Origin: a bacterium
GTDB taxonomy: Bacteria > RBG-13-61-14 > DATKZS01
Reading direction: 5' to 3'
DNA length: 64,000 nucleotides
Assembly (NCBI GenBank): GCA_963674965.2
Contig: CAXXFL010000006.1
Location: 256,001-320,000, forward strand
Part shown: piece after piece, positions 5,102 to 57,030 of the stretch
Layout of the letters: each line of letters starts with the position of its first letter
Position numbering within the stretch: the stretch's first letter is position 1
Translations under genes and position numbers: made by a program
Notes under the pieces: model-generated
Seen by the model: only the letters and a program-made list of their open reading frames with translations
Database searches by the model: none
What the model was told of the DNA's origin: nothing

Positions 5102-6064
5102 TTACGCCATCTTGGCCAGGGCCGGCTCCGGATTGTCGAGCGGATCTCTCACCGTCTGGTCAGCCTCGATCATGGCGGTTCGCATTTGTTCGGTCAGGGA
5201 GGTGAGATTGCCCGGAGAGTGCGGAATTAGAATAGCGTTCGATCGCGACGAGGCGCCGATCTCCTTTAGCATGTCAAAGTACTGAGTCATGAGGATAAGA
5301 TTCATCACGTCCTTGGCCGTCGTGCCGGGCACGGACTTCTGGAACTCGTCCACTGAATCGCGCAGACCAGCGACGATGGCCTGTCGTTGATCGGCAATGC
5401 CGCGGCCTTGCAGGGCCTTGCTCTGGGCGTCGCCCTCCGCCGCCTTGACCTTCAGAATTCGATCCGCTTCCCCTCTCTCGGTAGCAGCCACTCGCATCCG
5501 CTGAGCCGCGTTGATTTCGTTCATCGACGCCTTCACCATCGCGTCCGGGTCGATGTCCGTAACAAGAGCCTTGAGAATCCCGTAGCCAAAGCCCTCCATG
5601 ACCTGGGCAAGCTCGCTCATAACGATGTTGGCGATGTCATCCTTCTTCTCGAAGACGTCATCGAGTTTGATCTTCGGGACCTGAGCGCGCACGACATCAA
5701 AGACGAACGAAGTGATCTGACGGTTGGCGTTGTCCAGTTTATAGAACGCCTCGTAGACCTTTTCCGGCAGGACGTAGTACTGCACGGCGACCACCATGCG
5801 GACGAACACGTTGTCTTCCGTCTTGGTCTCGATCTCGACGTCCAGTTGCTGGACGCGCAGGTTTACACGGCCGACCACCTTGTCGATGAAGGGAATCTTG
5901 ACGCGGACGCCGGGTTCGGCTTGCCGTATGAATTTTCCCAGCCGCTGGACGATCGCGGTTGTCCGTTGCTCCACGGTAAAAATAGTGGCTGTAAGAAACG
6001 GTACCGCCGCGGCTACCAATAAAATCGCGATGATGACGAGGTAGTTCATTGGTCCAATTTGCAT
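5102..6064 (-). CDS. SPFH/band 7 domain membrane protein
   Basis: N-terminal TM helix, ETKTEDNVFV, LVTDIDPD, QALQG-like GDAQSKALQGRGIADQRQAI; AGGAG before ATG 6064. Confidence 0.9.
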   Translation of the reverse strand: MQIGPMNYLVIIAILLVAAAVPFLTATIFTVEQRTTAIVQRLGKFIRQAEPGVRVKIPFIDKVVGRVNLRVQQLDVEIETKTEDNVFVRMVVAVQYYVLPEKVYEAFYKLDNANRQITSFVFDVVRAQVPKIKLDDVFEKKDDIANIVMSELAQVMEGFGYGILKALVTDIDPDAMVKASMNEINAAQRMRVAATERGEADRILKVKAAEGDAQSKALQGRGIADQRQAIVAGLRDSVDEFQKSVPGTTAKDVMNLILMTQYFDMLKEIGASSRSNAILIPHSPGNLTSLTEQMRTAMIEADQTVRDPLDNPEPALAKMA

Positions 6065-6095
6065 GAGATTTCTCCTGTTTGATTTTCTGGTCTTA

Positions 6096-6344
6096 TTAAA
6101 TTTTGCCACGCTTTCCTGACTTTTTCTTTTCTTTTTCCGATTCGTCTTCAGCATAGCTATTAAGGATTTCACCTTGTTGCATTAGGCTCTCCCATTGATT
6201 TTTGTCCACGTTGGACAGTTTGTGTGCATAGTTGAAAACTTTCTCCCGGGTGAAGCCCTTAGCGTAAAGGGCCTTAGCGCAACGACAAGCTTTGACGCCA
6301 TCGTTTGTATTGATTGCGTCTTTCAAAGCATCCTCGATTTTCAA
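6096..6344 (-). CDS. Hypothetical protein (82 aa)
   Basis: Co-oriented with neighbours; AGAGG upstream of a TTG start. Confidence 0.55.
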   Translation of the reverse strand: MKIEDALKDAINTNDGVKACRCAKALYAKGFTREKVFNYAHKLSNVDKNQWESLMQQGEILNSYAEDESEKEKKKSGKRGKI

Positions 6345-6542
6345 TTTCTTACCTCTTTATTGTATTCAATGAAGCAGATTAATGGCTTGTCATATCCGGT
6401 GGCGCGGCATCTCTCTTATGTCGCGCCATGTTCGAGCGACCGTTCGCGCGAGTGACGCGACCCTGGAACAGCTCCGGTTCGAGGGGACGCGACCTCTCCA
6501 GCCGGGCTGTCCTAGGGACGGTCCTTGCGGCGTCGTGGCCGA

Positions 6543-6794
6543 TTAATCCCGAGGCTCGAAATGGGCCAGCGCCAGATTCACTTGAGCGTCAAATAGCTCC
6601 TTCTTCGGGACCACGGATTTCACGATGTTATGAATCTGCGACCTGGAGTACCGCGCCTCGCGAGTGTCCGGGTGATCGGACATGACGCCCTTGTAAAGAT
6701 CAAGAGCCCCATGCAGGTCCTTTTCAGTGTAGTGCGCCGCATATGCCGCCGCGTACCGCATGCCCGCTTCAGAATGTTTTGTTTCGTTCTTCAT
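6543..6794 (-). CDS. Small helical, TPR-like hypothetical protein
   Basis: AAGGAG RBS; pattern ALDLYKGVMSDHPDTREA resembles a TPR helix pair. Confidence 0.65.
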   Translation of the reverse strand: MKNETKHSEAGMRYAAAYAAHYTEKDLHGALDLYKGVMSDHPDTREARYSRSQIHNIVKSVVPKKELFDAQVNLALAHFEPRD

Positions 6795-12026: not shown

Positions 12027-12067
12027 CACTCCCTCCTTTCTCATTCGCAAACCCGAGGGTCTGCCAT

Positions 12068-20120: not shown

Positions 20121-20939
20121 TTAGCTCTCCGTTTCGGGCTCAGGTTCTTCAGGTTTAGGCTCGGCTTTAGCTTCAGGTTTTTCCTTCTCTTTCAGAAGTT
20201 CAGCGACGCCCTTTTCCAGCGACGTCAGATAATCCGCGATGCTCCACGCCACCTTTTGTCCATTCGTGGTGAGTTCAATGCCGCTGATCAGGTCCGGCGC
20301 GGTCTCGAATCGGACGTGGATTTCAGCCGAGAAAGTTTCGTTGAGCGCGTTTTGTATCGCCGCGCGTTGTTCCGCGGGCAGATCAAACGTGCTGCGCACG
20401 AGCGCTGGGTCGGACGCTGTCTTAAGGGCCTCGGCGAGGCCTGCTTTCGCCTGGCCGTCCATCTCTCGCAAGCGGCGAGTGAATACCTCTCCCAGGCGTT
20501 CTTCCAGACTTGTCGTGGCGAGATCCGTCAGCGCCTTTCGCGCGATGGCAAACACTTCCTCCCGGGTCCGGCGACTGATGGCTTGGTTTAAGCTATGCGC
20601 GTCGTTTCTCATCGTTTCCATCCGATTGGCACTTAAGGCCTCTGCCTCCTGCCGCGCTTCGTCGAGGAGCCGCTGACGTTCGGCTTTCGCCTCGGCCGTC
20701 GCCTTGCTCAAGAGTGTGGCGCGATGCTGGTCGAACTCCTCATTTTTGTGCTTGAACTCATCACTCTCCTTTTGGGCTTCGGCCTTTTTCTGGTCGGCGT
20801 TTGCGAGTTCTGTGGCGATCCGCTTCTCCCGCTCATCGATGGCGTGAAGGATGGGTTTGAAAAGGAAGCGCTTCATCAACCACACCAGGATTAGAAAGTT
20901 GAGCGCCTGTGCTCCAACTGTGAACCAATCGATCAACAT
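20121..20939 (-). CDS. atpF: N-type ATPase b subunit (long form with delta-like C-terminus)
   Basis: [21 protein letters not shown]..., coiled coil, C-terminal PDLISGIEL...KVAWSI. Confidence 0.93.
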
Positions 20940-20943
20940 AGGT

Positions 20944-21225
20944 TTACTTTCCTGTGGCTTGGGCGATGACGTGGTTCCAAAACGGGTTGGCGAAAATGAG
21001 AATCATCGAGACCACGAAACAGTAGATGGCCGTTGACTCGATCATCGCCAGGCCCACGAACAAGGTCCGAGTTATGGTAGCGGAGGCATCAGGCTGCTGG
21101 GCCAACGAACTCAGTGCCGTTGCGACCGCCTTCCCTTCCGCCAGCGCAGGCCCCATAGTGCCAAAACCGGTGGTGATGCCGGCGATGACAATCGATGCCA
21201 CCGCGATAATAGTCATGTTATCCAT
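20944..21225 (-). CDS. atpE: N-type ATPase c subunit
   Basis: AQQPD loop, Glu in helix 1 (ALAEG), ESTAIY Na+-ligand motif. Confidence 0.95.
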   Translation of the reverse strand: MDNMTIIAVASIVIAGITTGFGTMGPALAEGKAVATALSSLAQQPDASATITRTLFVGLAMIESTAIYCFVVSMILIFANPFWNHVIAQATGK

Positions 21226-21285
21226 AGTATCTCCTATGATGGTTGTCTACCCAACCTTTTAAATTAGCTGAATTATTTTACAAAC

Positions 21286-22302
21286 TCAGCCTTTCGCTAT
21301 TACTCCGTTCGGGAAGTCCTCCCAAATCAAGTTTTCCTGTAAAGTGATGTAAATGATCTTCAAAAATTTGCGAGCCAGTGCGATGATGGCCTTGCCCGCG
21401 CCGCGCCTGGCCTTGATACGCTCGTAGAAGCTCGACAAATAAGGGCTGTAACGCTTGGCGATGAGGGCGCATTGGACCAGGGTAGTGCGGCCGAGTTTGT
21501 TGCCCCGCTTCGTGATCCGGCCCGAGCGGCTGGTCTCGTTCGAGTTGCTAACCCGGGGGACGATGCCGAAGTAGGAGGCCAGCTTGCCCTCGTCGGGGAA
21601 GTCCTTGACGTCAACGATCACCGACAAAAGTATGGCCGAGCCAAGGTCCCCGATACCCTTTATGCTCTTCAAATTCTTGTGACCGGGAAGCTGATTGCCC
21701 GAGTCCTTGATGGCGGCCTCAAGCTCCTTGACCCCGGCGTTCAAGCCCCGAATCTGCTCCACCAGGACGCGGACCTCGGTCTTGACCATGGGGTCGAAAG
21801 GTATCTCCTGCACCGTCTCAAGGCCCTTCTCGCTGGAAAGATATTCCTTCTTCAGGTTGATGCCGTGGGCCGAGCAGATGTTGTTGATCTTGTTCTTCAA
21901 GGCCGTGCGAAGCTTCACCAGCTTGTCCCGGCTTTGAGTGAGGCTTTTAACCTGAGCGTGTTCCTTGTTCGGCATCCTCACCTCCGGCAAAAGGCCCTTG
22001 GACAAAAACAGGGCAAGGCGTCTGGCGTCGTTGCCGTCCGTTTTGTTGACCGACTCGCTGATGACCTTGAACTGGCGAGGGTTGACAACCACGACGCGGG
22101 AAACGAGGCCGCGAACGGCGTCGTAAAAAAGGCGGACGTTGCCCGTGACCTCAACCGCGATCTCGTCGGACTCGCGAAGCGTCGAGCAAAACTTCTCCAA
22201 ATCCTCGAGACGCCAGTCCTTGAGATAGTTCCGTCCGTTCTCGGCCAGGACGCAAGAGGTGAAACAATTCCTGTGCAGATCGATTCCAATGTACCTTCCC
22301 AT
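21286..22302 (-). CDS. IS110-family recombinase/transposase
   Basis: YIGIDLH, AVEVTG, KTDGNDA (DEDD RuvC-like); IKGIG...YFGIVPRVSNS...ITKRGN C-terminal domain. Confidence 0.95.
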   Translation of the reverse strand: MGRYIGIDLHRNCFTSCVLAENGRNYLKDWRLEDLEKFCSTLRESDEIAVEVTGNVRLFYDAVRGLVSRVVVVNPRQFKVISESVNKTDGNDARRLALFLSKGLLPEVRMPNKEHAQVKSLTQSRDKLVKLRTALKNKINNICSAHGINLKKEYLSSEKGLETVQEIPFDPMVKTEVRVLVEQIRGLNAGVKELEAAIKDSGNQLPGHKNLKSIKGIGDLGSAILLSVIVDVKDFPDEGKLASYFGIVPRVSNSNETSRSGRITKRGNKLGRTTLVQCALIAKRYSPYLSSFYERIKARRGAGKAIIALARKFLKIIYITLQENLIWEDFPNGVIAKG

Positions 22303-22330
22303 TTCCTTACTCCTCCCTAGAAATAAATTT

Positions 22331-22492
22331 GATCTAAGGTCGGAGTAGACACGCTTTGAGGGGCCGCCAAACTCCTATACAAGGTCTAGCCTTACGGTGG
22401 CGCTCCAGTCGCGGGGCTGACTAATCTCCTTTACGAGGTCATAAGCCTCACGAAAACGATCCAGCCCACGACCCGCCTACTCCAATAGATCA
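22331..22492 (-). ncRNA. Candidate IS110 bridge/seek RNA, copy 1
   Basis: Outer stems GATCTA/TAGATC and TTGGAGTAGGC/GTCTACTCCGA enclose two arms with the same scaffold CGT-NAGG-loop-CCTN-GT, followed by AAAGGAGA (matches target) and ATAGGAG (matches donor junction). Confidence 0.7.
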
Positions 22493-22563
22493 TTCCTAAC
22501 CTAGTTGAAGTATTTACCACCTCAAAACTCTTCATTCATACCATCTCCTTTTTATGTCTGGGT

Positions 22564-22890
22564 TCATGCCTCAATGTTTTCCTCGGGTTCAGGCTCGGGC
22601 TTACGGACTCGCGTGGCGGCCGCGATATAAACCGCTGTCAGAATACTGAAAATGTAGGCCTGAACCATGCCGGTGAGCAGACCGAGCGCGGTCATGATGA
22701 TCGGAAAAATATAGGGCACAATTGTGAGTAGAATACCGATAATCATGGCGCCGCTCATCATGTTTCCGAACAGACGGATGGCCAGGGCCAGCGTGCGCGA
22801 AAGTTCGCTGATGATGTTAAACGGCAGCATGATGAACGTCGGCTTCACATAGGACTGGAGGTAGTCGCCCAAACGCATGTTTGGGTTCAA
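22564..22890 (-). pseudogene. atpB: N-type ATPase a subunit, C-terminal half only
   Basis: PFNIISELSRTLALAIRLFGNMMSG and VQAYIF; 5' half and upstream atpD/C/Q/R are absent. Confidence 0.88.
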
Positions 22891-24569
22891 TCATGTTTCT
22901 TCCTCAAGCCATTTCCCGGCGGCGCATCCTGCGCAAGAGCGTCGTCGACAATCGTCTGGGCTTCCGAAAGGATGCGGCGCAGATGATCCGCTCCCCGGAA
23001 GCTCTCTCCGTAAATCTTGTAGATGTTCTCGGTCCCGGACGGACGCGCCGCGAACCAGCCGTTATCGGACACCACCTTCAACCCGCCAATCGCCGCTCCG
23101 TTGCCGGGCGCGTTGGTGAGGACCGCCAGGATTTTTTCGCCCGCCAGATCGCTCTGCTTAACCTGCTGTGGTGAGAGTTTCGCCAACGTTTTCTTTTGCT
23201 CCGGAGTGGCTGGCGCCTCAACGCGGTCATAGGCTGGCTCACCGAACTCGCACGTGAGTTCGTGGTAGATTTCGCCGGGATCGCGGCCCATCCGGGCGGT
23301 AATCTCCGCAGCCAGCAAAGCCGGGATAATCCCATCTTTGTCCGTCGTCCAGACTCCGCCATCCAACCGCAGGAAGGACGCGCCCGCGCTCTCTTCGCCT
23401 CCAAAACCGAGCGAGCCGTCCAGCAAGCCATCCACAAACCACTTGAATCCGACCGGCGTCTCGTGGAGCTTCCGGCCCAACTTCGCGGTGACCCGATCAA
23501 TCATCTGGCTGCTCACCACCGTCTTGCCGACCGCCGCTTTCTGGGACCACTTCGGTCGGTGCTGGAAGAGGTAGAAAATGGTGGCGGCCAGGTAATGATT
23601 GGGCGGCATCAATCCCGCGCTGCGGGTGACGATTCCGTGACGGTCGGCGTCCGTATCGCAGGCAAAGGCGATCTCGAACCGGTCCTTCAGGCCAATTAAC
23701 CTCTGCATCGCATAGGGGGATGAAGGGTCCATGCGGATCTGACCATCCCAATCCACCGTCATGAAACGAAAGGTCGGGTCAACGGCCTCGTTGACGACTG
23801 TGAGGTTCAAACCGTAGCGCTCGGCAATCTGCCCCCAGTAATGGACCCCGGCGCCGCCGAGCGGATCAACCCCCAGGCTGATCTTCGCGCCGCGAATGGC
23901 GTCCATGTCCAGCACGTTCTCGAGATCGGCCACGTAGGCATTGAGATAGTCGTGACGGTGCGTCGTGCCCGCGCGGAGCGCTTTTTCCAGAGCCATACGT
24001 TTTACGCCCGCAAGCCCCTGCTCGATAAACTCGTTGGCCTTGGCCTCGATCCAACCAGTGACGGAGGAATCCGCCGGCCCGCCATGGGGCGGATTGTATT
24101 TGAACCCGCCGTCGGGTGGCGGATTGTGCGACGGGGTGATAACGATGCCGTCGGAGAGGCCGGTCTTGCGTCCACGGTTGTATGTGAGAATTGCGTGGGA
24201 AACGGCAGGGGTTGGGGTATATTCATCCCCCTCTGAGATCATGACTTCGACCCCGTTTGCCGCCAGCACCTCAAGCGCGCTGGCAAAAGCCGGCACGGAA
24301 AGGGCATGAGTGTCCAGGCCAAGGAACAACGGGCCGTCGATCTTTTTCTGCTCCCGGTACAGACAAATGGCCTGACTGATGGCGAGAATATGCCATTTAT
24401 TGAAAGCCTTGTCGAAGGCGGAACCGCGATGTCCCGAGGTGCCGAAGGCAACCCGTTGCGCCGGCGCTGAAGGGTCAGGCTCCTCCGTGTAATAGGCCGT
24501 GACGAGTCTGGGCACATCCACCAGCATTGATACTTCGGCCGGCTTTCCGGCAAAAGGACTTACAGTCAT
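22887..24569 (-). CDS. pgm: Phosphoglucomutase
   Basis: [35 protein letters not shown]. Confidence 0.97.
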
Positions 24570-25702
24570 GACTCGTCCGCCAAATGTGGCGATGACCTTT
24601 GCGCCAAGGCTTCCATCAGCTTGTCGAACGGCTGGTTGAATTTCTTGACCCCTTCGTCCTCAAGCTGCTGCGTCACATGGTCGATATTGATGCCGAGTTC
24701 CGGCAGTCGTTCTAATATTCGGCGGGATTCCTCGACATCTTGCTCCAAGCGGGCCTTCGGGTCGCCGTGGTCGCGGTAAGCGTCGAGGGTTTTTACCGGG
24801 ACCGTGTTGACCGTGTCCGGTCCGATGAGGGCCTCGATGTATTTAACGTCGCTGTAGTCCGGATTTTTGGCGCCAGTGCTGGCCCAGAGAATCCGCTGTG
24901 TGCGAGCACCCTGGCCGGCAAGTTTTTTAAACCGGTCGCTCTCGAAGATTTCCTTGTAGATCTGATAGGCCATCTTCGCGCTGGCGATGGCAACCTGACC
25001 GCGCGCCTTCTTCGCTAGATCCGCCTCCTTGCCGCCTTGCGCGATAAGTTTGTCCAGCAGCGGATCCACCAGCACGTCAATGCGACTTACAAAGAAGCTG
25101 GCCACCGAGGCGACCTGCTTCACCAGCTTGCCTTGGACCACGCGCGCCTCGATGCCGGCGAGGAAAGCTTCCACCACTTGCAGATAACGTGGTAATCCAA
25201 AAAGCAACGTCACATTGACGTTGATACCTTCGCTGATAAGTTGCTGGATAACGGGCAGTCCATCGGCCGTCGCCGGGACTTTGATTAAGACATTGGGCCG
25301 GTTCAGCGCGGCCCACAACCGGCGGGCCTCCTTCATCGTACCTTCGGTGTCGTGCGCCAAGTGGGGATTGACCTCCAGGCTGACATATCCATCTTGGCCG
25401 TCAGTCCGGTCATAGAGAGGCTGAAACTCGTCGGCGGCGCTCTGCACGTCGCGCTGGCTGAGGGTTTCGTAGATTGCCTGAGCGCCTTTCCCCTTTGCCG
25501 CGATGGCCCGAATGTCCTCGTCGTATTCGTGGCTGTCCGCAATGGCCTTCTCGAAGATGGATGGATTCGAGGTCATCCCCCGCATTCCATCATCCTCGAT
25601 CAGACGCCTGAGCCCGCCGCCAGCGATCAAATCTCGTCGGATGTAGTCCAGCCAAATGGATTGGCCGAGCATTTCCACTTGTTTCAAAGGATTGCTCTTC
25701 AT
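24566..25702 (-). CDS. tal: Transaldolase
   Basis: [41 protein letters not shown] before ATG 25702. Confidence 0.96.
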
Positions 25703-25743
25703 GCTCGTGCCTCCACGCTTTCTTTCAGATTGCGTTCCCGCGG

Positions 25744-26151
25744 TTAAGCGGGGTAACTGTGCTCTCTTTTCGTTTCCGGCGGGCCTGGCTCTCGGACCCA
25801 CTCCCAGGCTTCCTCTAGTTGCGGGGTGGAAAAGAACTTTACTTCTCCTTGAATGAAATGGGAGCTGAACCGGACCCCCCACTGAAACCACTCCGGCCCG
25901 CCCACCACCGCCATTTTTTCCAGGTGGAAGCCTCCCTCCACCAGGCCGAACTTGACGTCATCTATCATCGCCTTGACCTCAAAGCCCTCGAAGTCATCCT
26001 CCGCGACGAATATGACCCGGATCCGGCCGTGGCTATGGATCACCTCTTCCAGCCGGGGGGTCAGGACCTGCTCGTAATCCTTTCCGCTCAGTCGGCCGCT
26101 AGCTTTAATCCCTAGAATATTGCCTTTGCTTTCTTTTAGAATCTCAATCAT
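25744..26151 (-). CDS. SpoIIAA-like (STAS/SEC14) protein
   Basis: MIEIL...ASGRLSGKDYE...KMAVVG...VKFF...EAWEWV. Confidence 0.85.
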   Translation of the reverse strand: MIEILKESKGNILGIKASGRLSGKDYEQVLTPRLEEVIHSHGRIRVIFVAEDDFEGFEVKAMIDDVKFGLVEGGFHLEKMAVVGGPEWFQWGVRFSSHFIQGEVKFFSTPQLEEAWEWVREPGPPETKREHSYPA

Positions 26152-26296
26152 TGGTTGCCTCCATCTCACCCGCGCGGGGCGATCAATTCTCGGCCGGGGC
26201 CAGATTCACTCCGGCAATGATTTTGCGCCAAAAACTCCCTCATGAGTCTCCTTTAGGGACCCGGTTGGGTTGGCGCGGTCGCGGCCGAAATGCACA

Positions 26297-27736
26297 TCAC
26301 ATCAGCGGCGACAACAGCCGGGCGAAGCTGTCTTTCAGTTTTGCCAGGTAACCCCTGCGATCAAGGTCCTCTTCGGTCACCTCCTTGCTTACCGCCTGGT
26401 CGCGGTGGAAGCGAGCTTCCAATTCGCCCGCGAACACCGGGTCCAGTACCAGGCCCCCTAGTTCGAAGTTGAGTCGGAAGCTGCGGATGTCGAGATTGGC
26501 GCTTCCAACGATGCTCCATCGGTTATCGACCATCAATGTCTTGGCATGGAGCATGGAAGGCAAATACTCGAACACGCGCACGCCCCCGCGCGTCAGCGAT
26601 GGGAAATACGATCGCGCCGCCGCGCCCACCAAACGAATGTCACCCTTGCCAGGCACTAGTACACGTACGTCCACCCCTCGCATGGCCGCGCTGATCAGGG
26701 CCTTTAAAATGGCGTCATCCGGGATGAAATAGGGGCTGGTCAGATAAATCTTGCTCCGGGCCGAGGCAATGCCGGCGAAGAAGACAAAAGAGTTGGCGTT
26801 ATGTTCCTGATCGGGCCCGCTCGGTATCACCGCCACGATGGAAGCGTCATCCGCTTCGGGCAGCGGGTGGGGCGGCGGCGACAACTGCTCATCGGCAGCG
26901 AAAAACCAGTCCTCCGCAAAGGTCTGCGCCAGTTCGCCCACCGCCGGGCCACGCATCATCAGGTGGGTGTCGAGAAAGACCATGTCCCCTTTCCGCCGTG
27001 ACGATCCAGAGTATTCGTCGCCGACGTTCATACTGCCGGTGAAACCGATTTTGCCGTCCACGATGATAATTTTACGGTGGTTGCGCAGGTGCACGGACCA
27101 GCGCCGACGCAGGGGGTTGATAGGCAGGAAGGCTTCCACCTTGCCGCCCGCGGACTTGAGGGCCTTAAGCCGCGCCGCGTCCAGGCCCATCGAGCCCAGG
27201 GCGTCATAAAGAAGTCTGACCTCCACCCCCGATCCGGCCCGCTCGGTCAGGGCATCAAGAAAGCGATGGCCGGTCTCGTCGTTATTAATGATGTAATATT
27301 CCGCCCAGATGCTGTGTCGGGCGGACGAAACCGCGGCCATCATCTTTGCAACCGCATCCTTGTTGTCGGCCATCAGTTCGACCCGATTGCCGGCCGTTGG
27401 AGCCAGTCCGGTCAGACGGACCGCGAGTTGCAGCAGCGAGCCTTCCAGCGCATCCACGGAGAGCCCCGGCGCGGCATGCCCCTGCCGGCTAAGGGTCCTC
27501 CGCAATGTCATGGCCGAGATGCGCTTGCGTCGAGTGACGCGCCTGACCCCGGCCCTGGTGAGCAACAGGTAAGAAACGGCGCCCACCACCGGCAGGGCCA
27601 CGATGGCGAACATCCAGGCCAGGGTCGCCTCCACCCCGTGCCGCCGCGATACCGCGCGGAACAGGGCGTAGGCGGAGAGCGTGTAAACGCACACCCAGAA
27701 CAAAGTCATCTTGCTCATTGGCGGCCGAACGACCAA
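26297..27736 (-). CDS. cls: Cardiolipin synthase
   Basis: Two N-terminal TM helices and two HKD motifs (NHRKIIIVDG, LHAKTLMVD), NLDIRSFRLNFE. Confidence 0.93.
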   Translation of the reverse strand: MVVRPPMSKMTLFWVCVYTLSAYALFRAVSRRHGVEATLAWMFAIVALPVVGAVSYLLLTRAGVRRVTRRKRISAMTLRRTLSRQGHAAPGLSVDALEGSLLQLAVRLTGLAPTAGNRVELMADNKDAVAKMMAAVSSARHSIWAEYYIINNDETGHRFLDALTERAGSGVEVRLLYDALGSMGLDAARLKALKSAGGKVEAFLPINPLRRRWSVHLRNHRKIIIVDGKIGFTGSMNVGDEYSGSSRRKGDMVFLDTHLMMRGPAVGELAQTFAEDWFFAADEQLSPPPHPLPEADDASIVAVIPSGPDQEHNANSFVFFAGIASARSKIYLTSPYFIPDDAILKALISAAMRGVDVRVLVPGKGDIRLVGAAARSYFPSLTRGGVRVFEYLPSMLHAKTLMVDNRWSIVGSANLDIRSFRLNFELGGLVLDPVFAGELEARFHRDQAVSKEVTEEDLDRRGYLAKLKDSFARLLSPLM

Positions 27737-27739
27737 GGC

Positions 27740-28228
27740 TTACCCGATGTTTGAGTCATGCGATCTCCTGCGCCGGGTCAAAGGTTGGGAGCCTGATTTC
27801 TGTCTTGGTTTTGCCTTCGGGGAATTATCTTTAAACCACTTTCGAACCTTCGCCGTGATCTGACGGTCCGTCATCTTGTCAACGGTTTCAACGCCCACGA
27901 TGCGGTCGTCAAGATTGTTAGTTTCGAGACGTTTGCGCAGTTCGTCTTTTGCCTCGCCAGGACCGAATATCAGGATTGCCTCCGAATTGCTAATACTCGC
28001 GATTACGGCATCGTAGAAAATGTTGAGCTCTCCCTCAAATTTTCTCTGGCGGCTATCGTCCTCCGGCACTAGCTGTGATTCATAGGGACCCTCTAGAGGC
28101 GAATCACCGGAACGACGGAGTTGTTTTTCAACCTTCGAGAGGATCAGCCTCACCTCTTCCCCTTGATCCGTAAGCGCCACTATTCTGGCCTTCTTGTGGT
28201 CAATCCATAGACCCACTTTGGTTCTCAT
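27740..28228 (-). CDS. eRF1-like/host-attachment-type hypothetical protein
   Basis: GLWIDHKKA, ILIFGPGEAKDEL, VETVDKMTDRQI; its RBS is the insertion site of IS110 copy 2. Confidence 0.7.
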   Translation of the reverse strand: MRTKVGLWIDHKKARIVALTDQGEEVRLILSKVEKQLRRSGDSPLEGPYESQLVPEDDSRQRKFEGELNIFYDAVIASISNSEAILIFGPGEAKDELRKRLETNNLDDRIVGVETVDKMTDRQITAKVRKWFKDNSPKAKPRQKSGSQPLTRRRRSHDSNIG

Positions 28229-28289
28229 CAATCTCTCCTATGATGGTTGTCTACCCAACCTTTTAAATTAGCTGAATTATTTTACAAAC

Positions 28290-29306
28290 TCAGCCTTTCG
28301 CTATTACTCCGTTCGGGAAGTCCTCCCAAATCAAGTTTTCCTGTAAAGTGATGTAAATGATCTTCAAAAATTTGCGAGCCAGCGCGATGATGGCCTTGCC
28401 CGCGCCGCGCCTGGCCTTGATACGCTCGTAGAAGCTCGACAAATAAGGGCTGTAACGCTTGGCGATGAGGGCGCATTGGACCAGGGTAGTGCGGCCGAGT
28501 TTGTTGCCCCGCTTCGTGATCCGGCCCGAGCGGCTGGTCTCGTTCGAGTTGCTAACCCGGGGGACGATGCCGAAGTAGGAGGCCAGCTTGCCCTCGTCGG
28601 GGAAGTCCTTGACGTCAACGATCACCGACAAAAGTATGGCCGAGCCAAGGTCCCCGATACCCTTTATGCTCTTCAAATTCTTGTGACCGGGAAGCTGATT
28701 GCCCGAGTCCTTGATGGCGGCCTCAAGCTCCTTGACCCCGGCGTTCAAGCCCCGAATCTGCTCCACCAGGACGCGGACCTCGGTCTTGACCATGGGGTCG
28801 AAAGGTATCTCCTGCACCGTCTCAAGGCCCTTCTCGCTGGAAAGATATTCCTTCTTCAGGTTGATGCCGTGGGCCGAGCAGATGTTGTTGATCTTGTTCT
28901 TCAAGGCCGTGCGAAGCTTCACCAGCTTGTCCCGGCTTTGAGTGAGGCTTTTAACCTGAGCGTGTTCCTTGTTCGGCATCCTCACCTCCGGCAAAAGGCC
29001 CTTGGACAAAAACAGGGCAAGGCGTCTGGCGTCGTTGCCGTCCGTTTTGTTGACCGACTCGCTGATGACCTTGAACTGGCGAGGGTTGACAACCACGACG
29101 CGGGAAACGAGGCCGCGAACGGCGTCGTAAAAAAGGCGGACGTTGCCCGTGACCTCAACCGCGATCTCGTCGGACTCGCGAAGCGTCGAGCAAAACTTCT
29201 CCAAATCCTCGAGACGCCAGTCCTTGAGATAGTTCCGTCCGTTCTCGGCCAGGACGCAAGAGGTGAAACAATTCCTGTGCAGATCGATTCCAATGTACCT
29301 TCCCAT
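28290..29306 (-). CDS. IS110-family recombinase/transposase
   Basis: Protein identical to 21286-22302. Confidence 0.95.
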   Translation of the reverse strand: MGRYIGIDLHRNCFTSCVLAENGRNYLKDWRLEDLEKFCSTLRESDEIAVEVTGNVRLFYDAVRGLVSRVVVVNPRQFKVISESVNKTDGNDARRLALFLSKGLLPEVRMPNKEHAQVKSLTQSRDKLVKLRTALKNKINNICSAHGINLKKEYLSSEKGLETVQEIPFDPMVKTEVRVLVEQIRGLNAGVKELEAAIKDSGNQLPGHKNLKSIKGIGDLGSAILLSVIVDVKDFPDEGKLASYFGIVPRVSNSNETSRSGRITKRGNKLGRTTLVQCALIAKRYSPYLSSFYERIKARRGAGKAIIALARKFLKIIYITLQENLIWEDFPNGVIAKG

Positions 29307-29334
29307 TTCCTTACTCCTCCCTAGAAATAAATTT

Positions 29335-29496
29335 GATCTAAGGTCGGAGTAGACACGCTTTGAGGGGCCGCCAAACTCCTATACAAGGTCTAGCCTTACG
29401 GTGGCGCTCCAGTCGCGGGGCTGACTAATCTCCTTTACGAGGTCATAAGCCTCACGAAAACGATCCAGCCCACGACCCGCCTACTCCAATAGATCA
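29335..29496 (-). ncRNA. Candidate IS110 bridge/seek RNA, copy 2
   Basis: Same sequence as 22331-22492. Confidence 0.7.
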
Positions 29497-29642
29497 TTCC
29501 TAACCTAGTTGAAGTATTTACCACCTCAAAACTCTTCATTCATACCATCTCCTTTGTCTATTTGCTTATCCTCTGGCAGCGCCAACATTTCGCGTCGCGC
29601 CGGCCGCCAACGAACCGGCGTCATAAGTTCTGAAACTCAGGC

Positions 29643-30467
29643 TTACTCGATGGTCATCAGGTTTTTTACCGCCAGCACGCCGTTAATGTCGTTAGCGAGC
29701 AAGGTGGCCAGGGTCTTTTCGGCCTCGTTCTTGGCCGTGCCGGACAAGGTGACCACGCCCTTGAACGTTTTCACCTTGGTCTTGAGGGCGCTGGTGGAGC
29801 GATGGGACAGCAAGGCGTACTTGACCTGGGCGGTGATGGACGAGTCGTCAACGGTATACGCCGCGTAATTGATTGCGTTTTTGGCGGTTCTGGACGTGTC
29901 ATCAACGGCGTCCCCCACGTAATCTTTCGCGTCAATGTAGGTCGCTTTCCAGGAACCGTTCACGACCATCTCGTTCTTGACGCTTTTTACGCCATCGACG
30001 TCTTCGGCGTATGCAGTCGCCAATTCCTTTTTGGCCTGGTTGGAGGTGACGCCCTTCAGGGTAATGACGCCGTCTTTGGCGGAAACGTCGATTTTACTGT
30101 CGTTCACGCTTCTATGAACGGCGAGCGTAATTTCCACCTTCTCTTGGATCCACGCATCCGAGTTGGCGGTCGGGTCCTCATCCTTGATGGTCAGCCGGTT
30201 GTCCACTTTTTTGACCCCGGGCATGGCCGCTACGGTCGTTTCGGCCAATAGTTTGCGGGAGGATCCGGCGACGACCCCGGTCAAGGTGACCACCCCGTCC
30301 TTGCACACGATTTTAATGTCGTCGCCCCTGAGAAAGGTCTTGAAGATATACGAATCCTTGACGGACGACATGATTTGAGCATCCGTCACGGACGCGCGCA
30401 CCGGCGTGACCATCGTCATCAGAACGGCAATGGCCGCCATCAGAAACACGTTATGTTTTGCTTTCAT
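29643..30467 (-). CDS. BON-domain (OsmY-like) protein
   Basis: Same length (274 aa) and close paralogue of 9794-10618. Confidence 0.9.
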   Translation of the reverse strand: MKAKHNVFLMAAIAVLMTMVTPVRASVTDAQIMSSVKDSYIFKTFLRGDDIKIVCKDGVVTLTGVVAGSSRKLLAETTVAAMPGVKKVDNRLTIKDEDPTANSDAWIQEKVEITLAVHRSVNDSKIDVSAKDGVITLKGVTSNQAKKELATAYAEDVDGVKSVKNEMVVNGSWKATYIDAKDYVGDAVDDTSRTAKNAINYAAYTVDDSSITAQVKYALLSHRSTSALKTKVKTFKGVVTLSGTAKNEAEKTLATLLANDINGVLAVKNLMTIE

Positions 30468-57001: not shown

Positions 57002-57030
57002 GACGCATAGTTTGAAAAGGAGTAAGAGTT

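Follow-up and report, generated by a model that had tools for sequence, protein, structure and literature searches.

An IS110-family insertion sequence found at AAAGGAG motifs ahead of start codons and the matching guide in its predicted bridge RNA

Described IS110-family systems and the element in the window

Insertion between a Shine-Dalgarno sequence and a start codon has been described for IS900 and IS901 of the Mycobacterium avium group, which belong to the IS110 family (PMC2942039). The present analysis concerns another member of this family, an insertion sequence (IS) found twice in a window of 64,000 nucleotides (nt), i.e. the whole stretch C6:256001-320000 of a 6.5-Mb assembly of seven contigs (genome G000), which shares this trait at seven of its nine sites in the genome and in a single orientation. 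The first-pass annotation of the window had been aware of no described case of such targeting, a view that the IS900/IS901 insertions already in print do not bear out. Doran 1997 and Inglis 2003 are reportedly the works cited for this kind of insertion, their titles concerning IS900 and IS901. IS900 furthermore carries the hed open reading frame (ORF), which lacks its own ribosome-binding site and start, on the strand complementary to its transposase (PMC8141618), and judging from the hed strand its transposase presumably runs antisense to the targeted gene. In contrast to IS900, as far as its description allows a comparison, the recombinase of the present element is co-oriented with the downstream gene and AGGAG is restored by the element itself.

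The other described systems are IS621 and the IS1111-type elements. IS621 targets REP elements (PMC11208160), in contrast to the ribosome-binding sites occupied here. Its catalytic residues are D11, E60, D102, D105 and S241, and the 3' side of the target loop of its bridge RNA is composed of a linker (G72-U73), an extension (74-76), the right target guide (77-80), the handshake guide (A81-U82) and a second linker (83-86) (PMC11208158), the AU facing A6 T7 of the donor (PMC13626964). In IS1111-type RNAs the order of the guide segments is reversed relative to IS110-type RNAs; these elements possess subterminal inverted repeats of 7-17 base pairs (bp), and their non-coding region is located downstream of the recombinase, in a few members upstream (PMC11187229).

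With a probability of about 0.85 the element of the window is an active or recently active, bridge-RNA-guided insertion sequence of the IS110 family. Its main features and the adjoining host sequences are:

21231..22544, minus strand: IS copy 1, one unit of 1314 bp, based on the alignment of ten genomic copies and the spacing of a tandem pair
28235..29548, minus strand: IS copy 2, with the recombinase at 28290-29306, the guide AAAGGAG at 29430-29436 and the short end at 28235-28289
21286..22302, minus strand: recombinase of 338 amino acids, IS110 family (DEDD RuvC-like domain and Tnp domain), based on Pfam and NCBIfam
21231..21285, minus strand: short non-coding end of 55 nt, ending in CATCATAGGAG and adjoining the host start codon
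22303..22544, minus strand: long non-coding end of 242 nt, predicted to encode the bridge RNA, judging by fold z-score and consensus structure
22545..22551, minus strand: AAAGGAG half-site of the target, adjoining copy 1 on its upstream side, the original Shine-Dalgarno sequence of atpE
29549..29555, minus strand: AAAGGAG half-site of the target, adjoining copy 2 on its upstream side
20944..21225, minus strand: atpE downstream of copy 1 (ATP synthase c subunit, 93 amino acids, PF00137), ATG 5 nt past AGGAG
27740..28228, minus strand: gene downstream of copy 2, 162 amino acids from the ATG, without Pfam family, ATG 6 nt past AGGAG

The two copies in the window differ by a single base. According to a BLAST search the genome contains ten full copies sharing 99.9-100% identity, each consisting of the 55-nt end, the ORF of 338 amino acids and the 242-nt non-coding end 5' of the ORF, plus one 42-nt fragment of the long end. 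By convention, the AGGAG at the recombinase-distal end was counted as part of the element and that at the opposite end as part of the target. Two of the ten copies form a head-to-tail pair (C7:6730-9359, loci L003 and L009), so that nine independent sites remain, and the distance of 1314 bp between the two starts sets the length of the unit. One AGGAG is shared at the joint of the pair, the joined ends reading CATCATAGGAG/ATGGTATG. The same joint occurs in one contig of run X3 ('goes back 1314'), where a tandem and a circle are indistinguishable. The pair itself fixes the joined-ends sequence permanently in the chromosome. Since a perfect target survives at the left junction of an inserted copy, a second insertion into this AAAGGAG would yield exactly such an arrangement. 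The 42-nt fragment (C6:1074153-1074194, locus L011) is preceded by ...CCCAAAGGA, and its 45-nt upstream flank closely resembles that of the C7 copy. The fragment could represent what is left of a copy, or else a junction that has been duplicated.

Read in the orientation of the recombinase, the left flanks of all nine sites end in AAAGGAG, followed by ATGGTATG, and all right ends read CATCATAGGAG, followed by a variable base (A six times, G twice, T once). Since in every copy the two bases preceding AGGAG are AA, from the target, at the left junction and AT, from the element, at the right junction, and since the base after AGGAG varies at the right junction only, the crossover presumably falls inside AGGAG. 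Neither inverted terminal repeats nor a target duplication were found at the junctions of the ten copies, the shared stretch AGGAG being longer than the 2-nt core. The presence of AGGAG at both junctions of every copy would also be expected if it represented a target-site duplication, or a ribosome-binding site carried at both ends of the element, with the site being chosen by the protein or at random. This explanation appears highly improbable, given the difference between AA and AT in every copy, the tandem unit, which holds one AGGAG per 1314 bp, and, as described below, variant flanks that track variant guides and empty sites of relatives that hold a single AGGAG.

The recombinase matches PF01548 (DEDD_Tnp_IS110, 2.5e-15), PF02371 (Transposase_20, 1.6e-21) and the NCBIfam family NF033542 ('IS110 family RNA-guided transposase'; 221.5 bits, cut-off 140). 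It shares 27% identity with the IS621 recombinase of E. coli W; no alignment with the ISEc21 recombinase was obtained (E 0.19). Its residues D8, E51, D89, D92 and S254 align with the five catalytic residues of IS621 in the order given above and do not vary among 33 aligned homologues. Through the recombinase gene runs an antisense open frame of 282 amino acids (21472-22320, plus strand, also 28476-29324), which recalls the hed ORF of IS900 and may be a by-product of composition.

Insertion sites and the predicted bridge RNA

In silico excision of copy 1 yields ...CATAAAAAGGAG-ATACT-ATG, with the atpE start at 21225-21223, and excision of copy 2 ...GACAAAGGAG-AGATTG-ATG, with the ORF start at 28228-28226. 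From these two removals the first-pass annotation had concluded that both empty sites share AAAGGAG just upstream of a start codon, that the ribosome-binding site of the 27740-28228 gene is restored in the second and that the downstream end of the element, which finishes in CATCATAGGAG at its recombinase-distal side and thus keeps AGGAG, supplies a ribosome-binding site to the gene; all three points hold, and the motif recurs at each of the nine genomic sites. At seven of these sites a start codon 5-8 nt past AGGAG opens an ORF of 93-354 amino acids. These start codons are ATG, the in-frame TTG 3 nt upstream at the site of copy 2 having been chosen by the script. Pfam domains were detected in five of the seven downstream ORFs (ATP synthase c, cytidylate-kinase-like, DUF4190 plus zinc ribbon, nitronate monooxygenase and zinc alcohol dehydrogenase), four of the matches beginning at profile position 1-2 and the best stretch of the nitronate monooxygenase at position 103. 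The element is always co-directional with the downstream gene.

Empty sites were also sought in contigs of four public runs aligned to 20900-22900, which provide contig evidence and have no bearing on expression. In several contigs the atpE start and the atpB end are linked by 28-32 other letters, the element being absent. Their likeness of 90-95% indicates that they derive from related organisms. A single AGGAG is retained in them before ATACTATG, preceded by the target-type AA. The claim that removal of copy 1 restores the order atpB-atpE is supported at the atpE junction and by the contigs of relatives, with the reservation that 'atpB' is merely a C-terminal piece of 108 amino acids (22564-22890, minus strand; Pfam profile positions 114-216 of 217). 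This piece abuts a phosphoglucomutase-like ORF (22887-24569), the contigs of relatives diverge beyond about 22871 (loose ends), and a full-length a-subunit gene is located at C1:536337-536945.

The genome contains 2049 AAAGGAG motifs, of which 465 are followed by a start codon at 3-10 nt and an ORF of at least 60 amino acids, compared with 168 for the reverse-complement control. Based on rough gene calls made for this analysis (4763 genes, 86% of the genome), the 2030 unoccupied motifs comprise 1450 within genes, 298 Shine-Dalgarno-like and 282 other intergenic sites; two that had been proposed as future targets do exist in the window (12033-12039 minus, 57016-57022 plus). None of the nine insertions lies in a coding sequence despite 71% of the AAAGGAG sites being coding, for which the random chance is 0.29^9 or about 1e-5. 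The preference of the element for the motif AAAGGAG is certain.

The long end folds with -92.9 kcal/mol (z = -4.64), and the consensus structure of 60 homologues contains 45 pairs, of which 15 show compensatory changes. Its parts are a 5' hairpin and a basal stem (GGAGUAGAC/GUCUACUCC) that encloses two modules, each made up of a stem, an internal loop and a hairpin. The 3' strand of module 1 reads GU-AAAGGAG-AU-UAGU and faces a variable, U/G-rich 5' strand of 11-12 nt; that of module 2 reads GU-AUAGGAG-NN and faces a very short 5' strand. The following segments are the predicted guides of copy 1:

22426..22432, minus strand: putative target guide AAAGGAG, forming the 3' strand of internal loop 1 where IS621 carries its right target guide and the extension
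22424..22425, minus strand: AU, placed as the handshake guide is in IS621, matching the first two bases (AT) of the long end of the element
22450..22461, minus strand: U/G-rich 5' strand of the first loop, GAUCGUUUUCGU, candidate weak second guide for the sense-strand AG plus spacer
22372..22378, minus strand: putative donor guide AUAGGAG, forming the 3' strand of loop 2, with the same sequence as the final 7 nt of the short end

The first-pass annotation had placed a guide, AAAGGAGAT, at 22424-22432 on the minus strand and counted nine of nine matches with target 1 and eight of nine with target 2. The segment is present, of which only the seven nucleotides AAAGGAG appear to read the target. 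Since the AU that follows them is shared by 66 of 67 relatives and corresponds to the two bases with which the element begins, as does the handshake guide of IS621, the complete match at target 1 is in part a coincidence.

Relatives were used to determine whether the guide varies together with the flank. In the protein collection 4456 proteins reached E <=1e-30 among the 8000 scored, the nearest of which were 84-86% identical and mostly encoded on metagenome contigs of 1.1-2.4 kb. Metagenome contigs were scanned with the 33-protein alignment, and the best 80 of 291 relatives (L041-L120, 64-85% protein identity) were kept. Together with the window copy they form a set of 81 elements, in which the start of the long end was located in 69, the short end in 64 and both in 55. 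The short-end pattern ...AGT(A/T)GACA-N-CATCATAGGAG occurs in 64 of the 81 loci, and nearly all left flanks end in NNAGGAG. An ATG 5-10 nt past AGGAG (mode 6-7) is present in 44 of the 55 loci whose right flank spans 15 nt or more, compared with 9.3 +/- 2.8 (maximum 18) in 1000 shuffles of the right flanks. A stricter rule requiring a start plus an ORF was satisfied at 41 of 57 loci, several of the misses merely reflecting short contigs. The position just upstream of start codons that the first-pass annotation had noted at two sites is found across the family as well as in the genome.

Module 1 could be parsed in 67 of the 69 long ends (L074 and L113 were left out), and for 66 loci the left flank was available as well. 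The guide reads AAAGGAG in 48 of these 66 loci; the remaining 18 carry the variants TAAGGAG, GAAGGAG, CAAGGAG, TGAGGAG, AGAGGAG, GGAGGAG and TCAGGAG. In 55 of the 66 loci the guide agrees exactly with the left flank (permutation mean 32.3, maximum 42; 55 was reached in 0 of 5000 permutations), and the variant guides equal their own flank in 14 of 18 cases compared with 1.67 expected. Because each locus represents a separate insertion, this co-variation strongly supports that the insertion site is chosen by the RNA guide.

Concerning the architecture, the element shares with IS621 the protein family, the upstream non-coding end, the two-loop RNA, the CT core, the lack of inverted repeats or duplication and the layout of the 3' strand, whose 2-nt GU linker, 3+4-nt guide, 2-nt AU and 4-nt linker correspond in length base for base to nt 72-86 of the IS621 RNA. 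By analogy with IS621, the AU would face the AT lying ahead of the core where the ends of the element are joined. In E. coli W, where IS621 was examined ('IS110-like element IS621 family transposase', 5789-6769), the junctions in gene orientation are ATCAGGC-CT/TGTATTATCC and ACAGTAT-CT/ACG, the 5' loop strand AUCGGGCCU runs in the same sense as the left flank ATCAGGC-CT and the recombinase-sense strand bears the CT core. Here, in contrast, the order is reversed, with the 3' strand reading the left flank and the CT core lying on the strand opposite to the recombinase, and a loose U/G-rich strand takes the place of the long 5'-strand guide of IS621. An assignment of AAAGGAG as an IS621-style left target guide was rejected after the loops had been parsed and IS621 itself had been checked.

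In the IS1111-type seekRNA elements ISEc11, ISKpn4 and ISPa11 the top-strand complement likewise precedes the bottom-strand match, and the IS1111 transposases of 330-350 amino acids (PMC11187229) are similar in size to the recombinase of 338 amino acids. Compared by description only, the element differs from them by its upstream non-coding region and by an inverted match of about 6 bp (GATGGT, by eye). The element thus joins the guide order and protein size of the IS1111 type to the position of the RNA gene in the IS110 type. The reversed guide order was rejected as a novelty, since the reversal between IS1111-type and IS110-type RNAs has already been published (PMC11187229).

Choice of the site and the second guide strand

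The U/G-rich 5' strand of the first loop was compared with the right flanks of 46 loci in ten registers, L058 and L076 having been dropped because of repeated short ends. The only significant register was the predicted one, in which the last U lies opposite the core A and the next base opposite G, followed by the spacer (3.41 compared with 2.76 Watson-Crick pairs of 8, z 3.97, 0 of 500). The last 9 nt of the 5' strand contain 59% U and 22% G and the spacers 45% A; in L042 all nine positions of the 5' strand can pair, three of them by wobble. These family-wide data weakly suggest that the 5' strand acts as a second guide.

Several results weigh against the reading as a bridge-RNA-guided element. 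Two of the nine genomic sites lack a credible gene, one being followed by an ATG with only nine codons and the other by no start. At the nine sites of the genome the 5' strand forms no more pairs than at all AAAGGAG sites (2.0 versus 1.85 of 7), and the two variable bases after AUAGGAG, which occupy the handshake position of the donor loop, did not correlate with the first two target bases (p 0.26). Guide and flank differ by one or two mismatches in 11 of the 66 family loci. An Rfam scan of 20800-30000 at E <=1 gave no match, a consensus promoter scan of the tandem joint called no promoter, and RNA run X6 showed zero cover inside the element, the runs being contigs and thus uninformative on expression. 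Furthermore, the atp cluster at copy 1 looks rearranged and, its a-subunit gene being truncated, may be dispensable.

The proposal of the first-pass annotation that the guide aims at translation initiation regions is upheld for AAAGGAG (nine of nine sites, co-variation in 55 of 66 loci) and is unsupported for a recognition of the start codon itself. It seems conceivable, with a chance a little short of even, that the guide reads the 7-mer alone and that the association with true starts arises after insertion, gene-disrupting copies being purged by selection. If only non-coding sites are tolerated, the expected share of Shine-Dalgarno sites is 51%, so that seven of nine is unremarkable (binomial P about 0.10, not significant) and the preference for true start sites could be due to selection. 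The spacers of the nine sites, moreover, share no sequence, and the second guide fits them no better than background. However, the lack of coding insertions (about 1e-5, on rough gene calls) would demand a very efficient purging of ten nearly identical, hence young, copies, and the family-wide U-rich 5' strand favours its own spacer in the predicted register, which argues for the spacer being read at least weakly.

An additional determinant may instead steer the element to initiation regions, either the U/G-rich second guide (with wobble) or single-stranded or transcribed DNA at operon junctions. We regard this as a more tentative explanation with odds clearly below even. It agrees with the complementary composition of 5' strand and spacers, with the predicted diagonal being the only significant one of ten and with the complete pairing in L042, yet the effect in the family is small and absent within this genome.

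For the bridge-RNA-guided element the following course of insertion can be proposed. The RNA would be expressed from the long end, and its complex with the recombinase would locate AAAGGAG via the 7-nt guide, which is predicted to pair with the strand antisense to the Shine-Dalgarno sequence, 5'-CT-CCTTT-3', with CT as the canonical IS110 core and CCTTT as the right target. The AUAGGAG of module 2 would pair likewise with CT-CCTAT of the short end. Recombination at the AG/CT core would then place the element directly after AAAGG/AG, between the Shine-Dalgarno sequence and the spacer and co-oriented with the gene. The U/G-rich 5' strand would pair loosely with the A-rich spacer, so that in practice about 7 nt may decide the site. 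Following insertion, the downstream gene would read ...CAUCAUAGGAG-spacer-AUG; since the short end finishes in ATAGGAG, the gene would keep AGGAG at the original distance from its start codon, the old AAAGGAG remaining at the upstream junction. For IS110 elements, copy-out transposition and 'half-match' recombination have been put forward in two preprints; either would fit ten identical copies and a loose second guide.

Transcription, distribution and significance

A terminator-like hairpin (GGTTGTCTACCCAACC then TTTTAAATTA; 21241-21256, plus strand) is located in the short end, antisense to the recombinase and facing inward from the side of the downstream gene. In the sense direction, no terminator-like site was found from the recombinase stop up to the short end, the only one there pointing the opposite way, so that a read-through of transcription from the element into the downstream gene is plausible. 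The short end also carries TAGACA, by eye a possible -35 box, and TAGACA-N17-TATGAA spans the joined ends, with TTGACA in many relatives (by eye); this arrangement may correspond to the usual IS110 junction promoter. At the opposite end, a mini-ORF of five codons (AUG AAU GAA GAG UUU UGA; 22522-22539, minus strand) begins 5 nt 3' of the host AAAGGAG, after AUGGU, in a region whose sequence ATGGTATGAATG is kept throughout the family.

Among 40 other related genomes only two distant matches were detected, sharing 55% (G019, partial) and 34% (G031) identity. The species-genome collection yielded a single locus of 29% identity, and the best match in the plasmid collection reached 49.8%, with no close named IS. 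In G031, a single contig of 1.5 Mb, the 34%-identical IS110-family gene accounts for 17 matches (loci L014-L039) with frames of up to 436 amino acids and appears as a separate, expanded element.

Some relatives deviate at their ends. Directly after the short end, L073, L074, L088, L095 and L097 show runs of GAG triplets (GAGGAGGAG...), which may stem from slipped or repeated recombination at the core or may be unusually long native ribosome-binding sites. The first approximately 45 nt of the long end are duplicated in tandem in L048 (272-547), and in L058 and L076 the terminal TAGACA...CATAG(G/T)AG block is repeated at the right end, all three representing partial end duplications.

Neither the main texts of Durrant 2024 and Siddiquee 2024 nor the other literature searched linked a bridge or seek RNA guide to ribosome-binding sites or to IS900, the sole mention of a ribosome-binding site found in Siddiquee 2024 concerning that of a cloned resistance gene; supplementary target-motif tables may list AGGAG-type targets. 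New are the explicit match of a guide to the Shine-Dalgarno sequence together with its natural reprogramming, a co-oriented layout by which the ribosome-binding site is restored, a second guide that pairs loosely and the size of this unnamed environmental clade.

For the IS110 family the findings offer a sequence-level reason for the old observation of elements landing between ribosome-binding site and start codon, namely that the guide itself is the ribosome-binding consensus. They also reveal a natural reprogramming of the guide (A, T, G or C at position 1, A or G at position 2) that is tracked by the insertion sites. Since this natural bridge system seemingly needs strict specificity over about 7 nt only and tolerates poor matching of its second guide, it bears on the off-target rules of bridge recombinases. 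In genome annotation, members of this clade may be used to mark true translation starts, and where a copy lies within an operon, loss of downstream expression should not be assumed.

It is possible, though our odds for it stay well under even, that these elements form a large environmental clade specialised on the commonest functional motif of bacterial genomes, with nearly every ribosome-binding site open to insertion, which would combine one strict 7-nt guide (NNAGGAG), a loose U/G-rich second guide and co-oriented insertion re-supplying AGGAG, would thereby insert into operons nearly without harm and would have its RNA and recombinase fed by read-through from the host. If this holds true, the clade would provide an example of natural half-site targeting as a life strategy and of a mobile means to uncouple or re-tune the expression of downstream genes.

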